The position numbers were made by a program, and so were the translations under genes. A model generated the notes under the pieces. It was not told the origin of the DNA and ran no database searches. It saw only the letters and a program-made list of their open reading frames with translations. A stretch of 32,256 bases of DNA, taken from positions 1 through 32,256 of the forward strand of contig CAJWCD010000022.1 of assembly GCA_913020725.1 (NCBI GenBank), read 5' to 3'. Source of the stretch: an uncultured Pseudomonadota bacterium (GTDB lineage: Bacteria > SAR324 > NAC60-12). Of the stretch, positions 25,848 to 31,820 are shown piece after piece. How positions within the stretch are numbered: position 1 is the stretch's first letter; each line of letters starts with the position of its first letter.

Positions 25848-26435
25848 TTAGAGCGTCGGAGACAGCAGGTTAACCATGAAACCGTGGCAGACGCCCTTGC
25901 CGATGTTGGTCAGTTTATGAGCGGTTTCCGTGCCATAGCGCAAGGTTTCCCCAGCTTCAACCACTTTCCGATTTTCCTCAATCTCGATCTCCAAGGCTCC
26001 CTTGAGCAGAGAAATGCTTTCGATGCTGCCGGTGCCATGCGATTCGGAGATCAGACACGATCCCGGTTGGGCCTCGAACTCGTACCACTGCACGGATGCA
26101 AGCATACTGACCAGCCCCAGAATCCGGAGGGTGAAGCCGCCATCCTCGCTGGCAACCGACGGGGTGGCGTTGTATTTGAGCTTCTCGAAAGGCGAAGAGG
26201 GCTTGTTGGAAGAAAGCAGGTCTTCCAGCGGATGATCCAGCGCCTGCGTGATGCGCCAGATCGTCGAGAGCGTGGGGTTGCTCTTGTCGCGTTCGATTTG
26301 CGAGAGGATCGCCTTTGAGACTCCGGATTTCGTGGCCAACTCGTCCAGTGTGAGGCCGTGGGCGCGACGCAGGCGATGAACCTCGTCGCCCACCTTGGGG
26401 GGTTTGAAACGTTGCTGGTCGTAAATCTTCGTCAT
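25848..26435 (-). CDS. XRE-family HTH + cupin transcriptional regulator (SutR/PuuR-like)
   Basis: LTLDELATKSGVSKAILSQIERDKSNPTL HTH followed by a cupin domain (ESHGTGSIE...GETLRY...H). ATG at 26435; divergent from the sulfur-carrier operon. Confidence 0.9.
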   Translation of the reverse strand: MTKIYDQQRFKPPKVGDEVHRLRRAHGLTLDELATKSGVSKAILSQIERDKSNPTLSTIWRITQALDHPLEDLLSSNKPSSPFEKLKYNATPSVASEDGGFTLRILGLVSMLASVQWYEFEAQPGSCLISESHGTGSIESISLLKGALEIEIEENRKVVEAGETLRYGTETAHKLTNIGKGVCHGFMVNLLSPTL

Positions 26436-26443
26436 GGTGCGTC

Positions 26444-26498
26444 GTTTAATATACTGAACATCAGTTTGACAATCGGGACTCGTGAAATTATAGTGAAC
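26444..26498 (+). promoter_or_regulatory. Sigma70 promoter of the sulfur-carrier operon with two putative operator sites
   Basis: TTGACA (26466-26471), 17 bp spacer, TATAGT (26489-26494). Imperfect palindrome GTTTAATATACTGAAC (26444-26459) and a second TATAGTGAAC half-site over the -10. Confidence 0.72.
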
Positions 26499-26538: not shown

Positions 26539-26820
26539 ATGGCCGTTACCATTGAAATCCCTTCCGCTCTTGTGCAATTCTCCGGGAACGAGGACGAAAT
26601 TGACGTTTCCGGAAGCACGGTGGGCGCAGCGTTCGACAACCTGCTTGCGCAACACGCCGCCCTCAAGTCGCACCTCTTCGAGGACTCCGGTGAGTTCCGC
26701 AGTTTTGTGAACGTCTATCTCAACGACGATGACATCCGCCAGCTTTCCGGACGCGACACCCCGGTTGCGGATGGCGATCTCATCCAGATCGTCCCTTCCA
26801 TCGCTGGAGGCTGGACATGA
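26539..26820 (+). CDS. MoaD/ThiS/CysO-type ubiquitin-like sulfur carrier, C-terminus GG-WT
   Basis: Beta-grasp pattern V.IPS.L...G.TV...FVNVYLNDDDIR.L.G.DTPV.DGD.I.IVPSIAGG followed by a 2-residue extension. Confidence 0.92.
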   Translation: MAVTIEIPSALVQFSGNEDEIDVSGSTVGAAFDNLLAQHAALKSHLFEDSGEFRSFVNVYLNDDDIRQLSGRDTPVADGDLIQIVPSIAGGWT

Positions 26821-27980
26821 CCGGCGAAATCACGCTCGGCAGCGAGGAAATCTCGCGCTACACCCGCCACTTGACCCTCCCGGAAGTGGGCATGGAGGGG
26901 CAGAAAAACTTCAAAGGCGGGAAGGTCTTGCTGATCGGCGCGGGTGGACTCGGTTCGCCAATGGCGCTCTATCTGGCTGCGGCAGGAGTTGGAGTGCTGG
27001 GAATTGTGGATGACGACGAGGTGGATCGTTCCAATCTCCAGCGGCAGATCGCTCATGCCGAAAGCGATGTCGGCAAGCCCAAGGTGGATTCCGCCCGCGA
27101 GGCCATCCGGGGCATCAATCCGCATGTTGAGGTGGAGGCCCACCCCGTCCGGCTCACGCGGGAGAACGCCACCAAACTGTTCGCGCAGTACGACATCATC
27201 GCGGACGGCAGCGACAATTTCCAGACGCGCTACCTCATCAACGACGCCGCCTACTTTGCCGGAAAGCCCCTCGTTTCGGCCTCGATCTTCCGTTTTCAGG
27301 GCCAGTTGACAGTGTTCGACCCGCACAACGGCGGGCCGTGCTATCGCTGTCTCTACGCCGAGCCGCCCCCCCCCGCCTTGGTTCCAAGCTGAGCAGAGGC
27401 GGGTGTCCTGGGCGTGCTCCCAGGCGTGATGGGGACTTTGCAGGCGACCGAAGTGCTCAAGCTGTTGCTGGGCAAGGGGAAATCCCTGAGCGGGCGTTTG
27501 TTGGTGTACGACGCGATGAAACTCTCGTTCCGCGAGTTGAAACTGCGACGCGATGAAAACTGCGCTTTGTGCGGCGACCAGCCCACGATTACGGAACTTC
27601 AGGATTACGAGGCGTTCTGTGCCGTTCCCCTTGCAACCGCTGAAGAGGAAAAGGAATTGCTTCCGGACGAGATCACCCCGCAAGAACTGAAAGCGTGGAT
27701 GGACGGCGAGCAACCATGCTCGCTCGTGGATGTGCGCGAAACGCAAGAGTGGGAAATCTGCCGCATCGACTCGGCACAACTGCTGCCGTTGAGTACTTTC
27801 AAAACCGCTGCGGACGCACTGAATCCGGATGAGCGCATCGTGCTGTACTGCTACAAGGGCAAGCGCTCCCTGCAAGCGTTGGAAAAACTCCGGGAAGCAG
27901 GTTTTACCAAACTGCACAGCCTGGCGGGCGGCATTGACCGCTGGGCAGAGCAAGTGGACCCGGAAATGCCGCGTTACTGA
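26817..27980 (+). CDS. moeB: MoeB/ThiF-rhodanese fusion (MoeZ-like E1 enzyme), 387 aa, with in-frame TGA at codon 192 predicted as selenocysteine
   Basis: Track ORFs 26817-27392 and 27414-27980 are in the same frame. Read-through gives CYRCLY-AEPPPPALVPS-[TGA]-AEAGVLGVLPG...CALC and a rhodanese domain (LYCYKGKRS). GAGGLG, SNLQRQ and DGSDNF are intact. Confidence 0.9.
27403..27427 (+). promoter_or_regulatory. Putative bacterial SECIS element
   Basis: Stem CCTGGG (27407-27412)/CCCAGG (27419-27424) with loop CGTGCT (G at loop position 2), a bulged T27406 and lower pairs G-C, T-G, G-T. The loop begins 20 nt after the TGA. Confidence 0.72.
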
Positions 27981-30332: not shown

Positions 30333-30408
30333 TCCCCGATAGCTCAGTTGGTAGAGCAGGTGACTGTTAATCACCGGGTCGCTGGTTCGAGTCCAGCTCG
30401 GGGAGCCA
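30333..30408 (+). tRNA. tRNA-Asn (GTT)
   Basis: 76-nt cloverleaf: acceptor TCCCCGA/TCGGGGA, D arm GCTC..GAGC, anticodon stem GGTGA/TCACC with GTT at 30366-30368, GGTTCGAGTCC T arm and encoded CCA. Confidence 0.97.
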
Positions 30409-30749: not shown

Positions 30750-31820
30750 ATGGCTAGTATCCAGATACGAGAAAAGAATGGTCGGCCTTCATACACGGTT
30801 AAAATTCGCCTCAGGGGCCACAAACCCGTATTTGCAACCTTTCATCGGTTGACGGACGCCAAGAAATGGGCGACACAAACGGAGGCGGCAATCCGGGAAG
30901 GTCGTTATTTCAAAACCGCCGAAGCTCAAAGGCACACCGTAAAAGACTTGGTTGAACGGTACTGTGCCGAAGTTCTCCCTCAAAAACCACGAAGCGCATA
31001 CCACTACAAGATCCAGCTGTCATGGTGGAAAGAGAAAATTGGACACATTCTCCTTTTTGATTTAACCCCTTCATTGCTTAACGAGTACCGGACAAAGCTC
31101 GTTAAGCATCAAACTCTCAGAGGCACTGTGCGCTCCCCAAGCACTGTTAACCGCTACCTTGCTGCTCTTTCCACCGCATGTACAACAGCAGTCAGGGAGT
31201 GGGAATGGATGGAGGAAAATCCAGTTCTCAAAGTCTCCAAGCTTAAGGAGCCAAGAGGGCGCATCCGTTATCTGGACGACAATGAGCGAGAGGTGTTGCT
31301 AACGGCATGTAAGGCATCCAGCAACCCAAATCTTTATACAGCGGTCGTGTTAGCCTTGGCCACAGGAGCGAGGCAGATGGAGGTTTGGGGGTTGAGCTGG
31401 AGAGACATTGACCTCCAGCGAGGTTTCATCACTTTGATGGATACGAAAAACCAAGACCCACGCTCAATTCCACTTCGAGGACACGCCCTGGAATTAGTAA
31501 AGGAGAAATCCAAAGTAAGACGTTTGGACACCAACCGGTTGTTCCCCTCCAAAAAGAATCCACTTAATTCCTTTGATTTTAGAGCCCCCTTTGTCCGGGC
31601 GTTGAAGGAAGCCGGGATTGAGGATTTCAGATGGCACGATCTCCGGCATTCGTGTGCCAGTTACCTAGCAATGGAGGGAGTCCCAATTAGGACAATAGCT
31701 GAAATTCTGGGACATCGCACCCTCCAGATGGTGCAGAGGTACACCCATCTTTCGCCGGAACATTTGGCAGAAGCAGTCGGAAACATGAACAAGAAAATCT
31801 TTGGAGAAGGATCACAATGA
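30750..31820 (+). CDS. Tyrosine recombinase/integrase
   Basis: Complete catalytic set: TGARQME (R), TKN (K), WHDLRH (HxxR), LGH (H) and RYTH (Y), plus an N-terminal arm-binding-like segment. Confidence 0.95.
   Translation: MASIQIREKNGRPSYTVKIRLRGHKPVFATFHRLTDAKKWATQTEAAIREGRYFKTAEAQRHTVKDLVERYCAEVLPQKPRSAYHYKIQLSWWKEKIGHILLFDLTPSLLNEYRTKLVKHQTLRGTVRSPSTVNRYLAALSTACTTAVREWEWMEENPVLKVSKLKEPRGRIRYLDDNEREVLLTACKASSNPNLYTAVVLALATGARQMEVWGLSWRDIDLQRGFITLMDTKNQDPRSIPLRGHALELVKEKSKVRRLDTNRLFPSKKNPLNSFDFRAPFVRALKEAGIEDFRWHDLRHSCASYLAMEGVPIRTIAEILGHRTLQMVQRYTHLSPEHLAEAVGNMNKKIFGEGSQ

Follow-up and report, generated by a model that had tools for sequence, protein, structure and literature searches.

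Gene Organization of the Locus

The window analysed here is a stretch of 32,256 nt (contig CAJWCD010000022.1, assembly GCA_913020725.1, forward strand) from an uncultured bacterium of the SAR324 lineage, a placement borne out by the SAR324 names of related proteins. It contains an operon in which a gene for a CysO-like sulfur carrier is followed by genes for an E1-like enzyme of the MoeZ/MoeB type, a JAMM metalloprotease and a long PLP enzyme (Table 1). The carrier stop codon is overlapped by the ATG of the moeZ/moeB gene, and of the two best PDB matches of the carrier, 3dwg_C is presumably CysO itself. RNA contigs, which cannot rank expression, cover part of the operon. Downstream of it lie a tRNA-Asn gene (30333-30408) and a tyrosine integrase-like gene (30750-31820; judged from translation), probably marking the edge of an integrated element.

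Table 1. Features of the moeZ/moeB operon, in positions of the window.
Feature	Position	Strand	Remarks
XRE-cupin regulator, divergent	25848..26435	-	beside the operon in many relatives
Short palindrome, possible operator	26453-26465		immediately 5' of the -35 box, in the gap that separates the operon from the XRE-cupin gene
Sigma-70-like promoter	26466..26494	+	ahead of the carrier gene; assigned by its match to the consensus (11/12)
CysO-like ubiquitin-fold sulfur carrier, 93 aa	26539..26820	+	ends in Gly-Gly plus a 2-residue tail that would have to be trimmed off; best PDB matches 4n6e_B, 3dwg_C
moeZ/moeB selenoprotein gene, 387 aa (predicted)	26817..27980	+	ThiF (E1-like) adenylation domain 15-250 and C-terminal rhodanese 287-378 (Pfam, read-through protein)
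First Zn CxxC (C175, C178)	27339..27350	+	intact
In-frame TGA, codon 192, predicted selenocysteine	27390..27392	+	crossover loop; equivalent to Uba4 Cys202/Cys225 and MoeB Cys187
Bacterial SECIS (predicted)	27407..27424	+	6-bp stem, 6-nt loop at 27413-27418; codons 197-203
Second Zn CxxC (C249, C252)	27561..27572	+	intact
Linker Cys268	27618..27620	+	aligned with Uba4 Cys305
Rhodanese active-site Cys345 (predicted persulfide)	27849..27851	+	intact
JAMM/Prok-JAB metalloprotease (Mec-like), 159 aa	27989..28468	+	
Long Cys/Met-metabolism PLP enzyme, 590 aa	28485..30257	+	PF01053

The moeZ/moeB gene had originally been noticed as two open reading frames that share a frame and are parted only by a TGA. 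Translation bears this out: 191 aa are followed by the TGA, 195 aa and a terminal TGA, 387 codons in all, with no other lesion. The GAGGLG nucleotide-binding motif (P-loop) lies undamaged at residues 41-46, and the E1-rhodanese hallmarks are all present, i.e., the P-loop, two Zn CxxC pairs, the crossover nucleophile position and a C-terminal rhodanese domain with its Cys, as had been claimed. The protein passes the cut-offs of NCBIfam NF006444 and NF004281 and scores under that of the actinobacterial MoeZ equivalog (476 against 647).

The residues around the TGA read PPPPALVPS-U-AEAGVLGVLPG. In alignments the TGA codon falls on Cys187 of E. coli MoeB (chain 1jw9), the equivalence proposed originally, as well as on the crossover-loop Cys in Uba4 (6yub; C202 in the numbering of the published paper, as counted from these alignments). 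All of the best 120 full-length homologues listed have Cys there (120/120, identity at most 59%). Assembled contigs, as distinct from raw reads, from two DNA runs belonging to different studies (X2 and X4) span the codon with no differences listed; an RNA contig (X14, 27239-27428) also spans it with no difference listed and then continues into unlike sequence. The TGA is thus present in independent assemblies.

Selenocysteine Machinery

In the genome to which the window belongs (G000, 93.3% complete), all four components of the selenocysteine machinery were found: selA (E = 9e-139), the tRNA-Sec gene selC (66.3 bits, anticodon TCA), a SelB wing domain within a 683-aa frame, and selD, which carries an in-frame TGA of its own. 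The tRNA-Sec is the only tRNA with a TCA anticodon found in the genome, and both the moeZ/moeB gene and the carrier gene stop at TGA where their homologues stop. These observations argue against a general reassignment of UGA to Trp or Gly, to which the Trp found at this site in one Bacteroidota homologue might otherwise point. Alternatively, the gene could act as two separate polypeptides, as a GTG at 27414 starts a 188-aa downstream ORF; however, the split falls between the two Zn CxxC pairs of the ThiF domain and loses the catalytic residue. We regard reassignment or two polypeptides as very improbable.

A home-made screen of G000, based on coding potential and a hairpin, gave 159 candidates, mostly ordinary stops, from which 17 were picked by eye. 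Five of the 17, a figure that does not amount to a selenoproteome count, match known (seleno)protein families across the TGA (two AhpD-like, one SelW-like, one UGSC and one PrdB-like); the remainder were one YtfJ-like candidate below the cut-off, four plain gene junctions and seven without a match. Probable selenoproteins, namely the two AhpD-like, SelW-like, UGSC and PrdB-like proteins and SelD, lie on contigs C83, C34, C5, C175, C35 and C93 (L239-L242, L244 and L012); two of their hairpin loops start with CGG like the moeZ loop, and the others are GGUC. A thioredoxin-like UxxC protein recognised by eye (L246) and the YtfJ-like protein (L247) are unconfirmed candidates.

Distribution of the TGA

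The moeZ/moeB gene is present in 37 of 41 genomes, 33 of which have one TGA in the gene. In the whole SAR324-type order, 56 of 64 genomes match and 52 of these 56 share an in-frame TGA, so that the TGA is not unique to this strain. Codon-level reading placed it at codon 192, always instead of Cys, in 48 genes whose identity is as low as about 48%; the TGA-flagged genomes G042, G052, G054 and G060 fall outside this reading. Four genomes (G007, G010, G011 and G012) have the Cys form. The selA gene is found in 40 of the 41 genomes, the exception being the Cys-form G007, while the other three keep it despite their Cys form. Therefore, Sec is favoured but not required at this site.

A FastTree phylogeny was built from 102 of 255 domain sequences after dereplication and midpoint-rooted. 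In this tree the Cys orthologues form one clade (support 1.0) nested within the Sec clade of the order (0.97), which suggests a single Sec-to-Cys change within the order. A second Sec group is supported at only 0.42. Outside the order, the match covers the ThiF part only in 16 of 24 genomes, and two other-order genomes flagged with one TGA were rejected, having Cys (G076) and Ala (G074) at the site. A pattern scan of the genome contigs, whose patterns derived from one sequence, found 20 loci and for this reason picked up chiefly distant Cys forms. One Sec-form gene (L226, G019:C5:88142-89207) matches in two pieces (residues 3-243 and 285-387) and so appears damaged. In a Bacteroidota MoeZ (L049:4060-5217) the catalytic codon is TGG (Trp), and the sequence downstream is partly similar.

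In the protein collection the 191-aa TGA-truncated fragment is recorded from 55 contigs, while the best 120 full-length homologues listed are Cys forms. The Sec family is thus largely concealed by annotation, the fate that had been expected of this gene in standard pipelines.

The SECIS-Like Hairpin

The stem of the predicted SECIS begins 14 nt past the TGA and its loop 20 nt past it, with G as the second loop base and a folding energy of -9.2 to -10.5 kcal/mol. With an MFE of -10.3 in this comparison, the hairpin lies within the bSECIS limits given in PMC13188914 (a loop of 3-9 nt, a stem of 4-16 bp, a G among the first two loop bases, 16-37 nt of spacing, MFE ≤ -7.5). Such a test is weak alone: 721 of 2000 random synonymous recodings (36%) of the same peptide pass it. 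Folding energy was rejected as evidence for a SECIS. Compared with shuffles, the stability equals chance (z = -0.08 for 27400-27430), and across four folding windows spanning the hairpin, two of which fold differently, z ranges from -0.28 to +1.56.

Conservation of the codons is another matter. When 26 TGA genes were compared at 94 conserved degenerate positions, codons 197-201 proved the five most fixed (0.96-1.0; next 0.69, median 0.46), and codon 202 is restricted to two codons that keep the pair. The same codons 197-201 vary freely in the 4 Cys genes. The loop sequence is invariant in 48/48 TGA genes, at loci of 35-67% GC, and all six stem pairs are formed in 46 of the 48 versus none of 5 Cys genes. 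Judged from these sequence comparisons, the hairpin codons are under selection solely in TGA genes, and the relatives do have a conserved hairpin. Stem changes in the TGA genes are one-sided wobbles; compensatory two-sided changes were sought among all 48 and not found, the variation being limited by the protein sequence. The stem, the loop, its G and the 14-nt offset of the original prediction were all seen, whereas the bulged U that it described is incidental: the base behind it, at the third position of codon 203, is not conserved (C, A and G in 11, 12 and 3 of the 26 TGA genes).

Metagenomes were scanned for the hairpin with any of TGA, TGC and TGT allowed ahead of it; among the matches listed, the codon was TGA in 118 of 120. 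A genome-wide search for look-alikes of the moeZ hairpin after a TGA returned solely the gene itself at fewer than five mismatches. The loop of the selD hairpin is GGUC, unlike that of moeZ.

The storage of a truncated 191-aa protein in databases is what a nonsense mutation, a pseudogene or an assembly error would leave behind. On the other hand, the TGA stands at the same codon in the 48 genes and replaces Cys, the codons downstream are frozen, the codon occurs in independent assemblies, and the gene is the sole E1 found in a molybdoenzyme-rich genome. The conservation data refute this explanation, and its probability is practically nil. SelB acting on the hairpin would almost certainly bring Sec-tRNA to UGA 192 and thereby yield a 387-aa protein of the MoeZ/Uba4/MOCS3 type. 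With the machinery, the TGA conservation, the alignment with Cys and the frozen hairpin codons all in support of the original prediction of a 387-aa Sec enzyme, we consider a functional Sec E1-rhodanese enzyme the best explanation overall (probability roughly 0.88).

A Rhodanese-First Form in Other Phyla

Of the 118 TGA hits listed, most (92) continue for no more than about 115 residues beyond the UGA; a long C-terminal part follows in 14, and the other 12 are cut. An N-terminal rhodanese domain was found in all three short-tailed hits scanned (3/3), and a ThiF enzyme of this rhodanese-first kind, which shares the UGA and has an identical hairpin, is encoded at L104, L109, L113, L117, L125, L162, L165 and most of L099-L218. 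Its TGA-truncated products are held in public collections as 306-aa proteins, and named cluster members of the truncated forms include Candidatus Poribacteria and Actinomycetota. One form with a C-terminal rhodanese clusters with Akkermansiaceae, and a further three clusters are GC-rich. A rhodanese fusion, at either end, was thus seen in all TGA genes scanned for domains. No mention of a rhodanese-first form was found in the literature searched, though the online content of BSepDB may list such genes.

Relation to Known Proteins

A selenoprotein family called "Molybdopterin biosynthesis MoeB protein" was named in a Sargasso Sea paper of 2005, with 11 sequences and none in complete genomes (PMC1088965), and the GOS paper of 2008 gives 19 MoeB sequences (PMC2398784). 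The family is still predicted-only in reviews of 2022 and 2026 (PMC9312934, PMC13188914), and the table in the latter places it among entries from computational studies, outside the part headed "experimentally verified". The present gene fits the 2005 family, having a ThiF/COG0476 domain with a predicted Sec at the crossover-loop position. It shares with the sequences in the 2005 and 2008 supplements the Sec site, the GVLGVLPG downstream of it, the hairpin codons and the C-terminal rhodanese, and the earlier remark that the family may not be new proved correct. Unlike those read fragments, it is a whole gene, in a genome with the machinery and an operon, and is found across an order. One GOS "MoeB" read has quite different Sec flanks, which hints at an independent origin (PMC2398784, supplement 3).

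The accessible parts of the 2005 and 2008 papers (PMC1088965, PMC2398784) assign no catalytic role to the Sec, and no MoeB family entry was found in the accessible parts of the BSepDB publication and of Peng 2016. In the literature searched, which covered few subscription papers, we found no biochemical study of a MoeB selenoprotein, no assignment of one to SAR324 and no paper describing a selenoester mechanism or selenium dependence. The gene is a well-supported added member of a known, predicted-only selenoprotein family, of which neither the family nor the Sec site is new. What is new here is the sole-E1 status in 26 of 33 TGA genomes, the operon context and the rhodanese-first form in other phyla.

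Among characterised proteins, a close likeness in layout is seen to Uba4/MOCS3, the eukaryotic Urm1 E1 (6yub; E = 2e-63), which is likewise an E1-rhodanese fusion with aligned crossover-loop, linker and rhodanese Cys positions. Uba4 differs in having Cys where the Sec is predicted here and in serving Urm1 and tRNA thiolation. E. coli MoeB and ThiF (1jw9, 1zud) share the adenylation domain, the P-loop and the Zn site, but are without rhodanese and are described as thioester-free (PMC6007339).

Proposed Role of Sec192

In enzymes of this family, ubiquitin-fold carriers are adenylated on their C-terminal Gly by the ThiF domain, and the rhodanese domain carries a persulfide. Sec192 on the crossover loop would attack the carrier adenylate to give a carrier selenoester; the persulfide of rhodanese Cys345 would then accept the carrier from Sec192, and reduction would free carrier-COSH. 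This route, drawn by analogy with yeast Uba4, seems to us the somewhat more probable one. Cys225/Cys202 of Uba4 is the thioester site joining its two domains and is required in vitro and in vivo (PMC6007339, PMC7527816), and Sec192 is thus most likely selenoester-forming. However, the bacterial MoeB/MoaD system makes no thioester and archaeal UbaA reportedly does not use the crossover site (PMC6007339), so that the selenoester step may not hold.

The main rival is that Sec is inserted but has a redox or protective role, either resolving an acyl-persulfide or blocking self-conjugation by carrier-COSH, with no obligatory selenoester. The dispensability of C187 in E. coli MoeB supports such a reading. 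So do the thioester-free MoeB/MoaD route and the protection that Cys202 additionally gives Uba4 from conjugating to itself under oxidative stress (PMC7527816). The requirement for the Uba4 thioester site was seen in precisely a fused E1-rhodanese enzyme (PMC6007339), and every TGA gene scanned for domains is such a fusion; on these grounds a purely redox or protective Sec appears clearly less likely than the selenoester, though a serious contender.

The Operon and Carrier-Based Synthesis

A carrier with Gly-Gly, a JAMM protease and an E1 lie together at the locus. Carrier and JAMM genes flank the moeZ/moeB gene in 7 of 26 TGA loci (1.5-kb flanks) and likewise at 11 of another 13, most of which come from one genus; at loci fetched elsewhere, the JAMM gene directly precedes the PLP gene in 6 of 8, and the two are fused in G023, G013 and P0263. 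Carrier tails past Gly-Gly vary, and 4 of 28 carriers stop at Gly-Gly yet keep JAMM, so that a role in product release fits as well as trimming.

The PLP Lys395 is invariant in 11/11 aligned sequences, and BesB is the sole full-length aligner of the 590-aa enzyme among the listed fold matches (TM 0.66). The N-terminal lobe of the enzyme is degenerate, and homologues at E ≤ 1e-60 number only 17 among 8000 scored. The PLP gene occurs in 24 of the 41 genomes, in family f1 only; it was not found in family f2 (0/16). Genera g2 and g3 have the PLP gene, but a search there for the CysO-like carrier found none (0/7). Consequently, the link between carrier and PLP enzyme is not obligatory.

The gene set resembles the protein-thiocarboxylate pathways of M. 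tuberculosis (CysO/MoeZ/Mec/CysM), W. succinogenes (methionine route) and Streptomyces (MetO/Mec/MoeZ/MetM) (PMC6225789, GapMind 2026 preprint), which likewise combine a carrier, MoeZ, a JAMM protease and a PLP enzyme. It differs from them in its predicted Sec E1 and in its PLP enzyme, a long, BesB-like member of the cystathionine-gamma-synthase family in place of CysM or the ThrC-like MetM; a CysM-type synthase (PALP fold, PF00291) is absent from the operon. In this scheme the E1 would also charge the neighbouring CysO-like carrier and the JAMM protease would trim the carrier and/or release the product, while we give even odds to the PLP enzyme making homocysteine or cysteine on the carrier. 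Ordinary routes are represented in G000 by two metY genes and cysK, and a MetX-like match falls short of the cut-off.

The operon might instead be a selenium-carrying system, in which Sec helps to form a carrier selenocarboxylate for the synthesis of seleno-amino acids. All that speaks for this is that a Sec enzyme occurs together with a carrier and a PLP enzyme. The operon has no selD, selA or other selenium gene, the Cys-form genomes retain the same carrier and PLP genes, and the rhodanese Cys is ordinary; we consider this possibility highly unlikely.

A Probable Sole E1 for Sulfur Carriers

The moeZ/moeB gene is the one ThiF-family match in G000, where a second E1 could be missing from the assembly because the genome is 93% complete. 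In 26 of the 33 TGA genomes no ThiF-family gene besides it was found; the remaining 7 have another ThiF-family match. Also present in G000 are MoaC and MoaE, another carrier of the ThiS family and 10 matches to molybdoenzymes of the xanthine-oxidase family, with no ThiG over the cut-off; MoaE is found in 36 of the 41 genomes. A MoaD-like carrier in G000 (L067:1477-1731, contig C17) is encoded away from moaE and has three residues after its Gly-Gly, so that it may also need the JAMM protease. The sharing of one E1 has a precedent in TtuC of T. thermophilus (PMC3980101). We consider it likely that the Sec E1 charges the MoaD-like carrier for molybdopterin. As a sole ThiF-family gene in most TGA genomes, it probably makes molybdenum-cofactor synthesis in these genomes dependent on selenium. 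The gene fills an annotation gap in genomes that seem to be without a whole MoeB though rich in molybdoenzymes.

Significance

Catalogued selenoproteins are mostly described as redox enzymes. If Sec192 acts like the Cys of Uba4, selenium would serve as an acyl-transfer nucleophile in an enzyme of the type ancestral to ubiquitin-activating enzymes. Because nature offers both Sec and Cys forms of the same family (48 and 4 orthologues, respectively), the role of Sec is directly testable; the proposed selenoester chemistry merits following, as does the probable dependence of molybdenum-cofactor synthesis on selenium. Taken as a whole, and put forward tentatively, the picture would be that of a natural selenoester-forming E1 that is the single sulfur-carrier activator in most genomes of an abundant marine order and ties molybdenum-cofactor and carrier-based sulfur amino-acid synthesis to selenium, with a rhodanese-first form in Poribacteria, Actinomycetota and GC-rich lineages.
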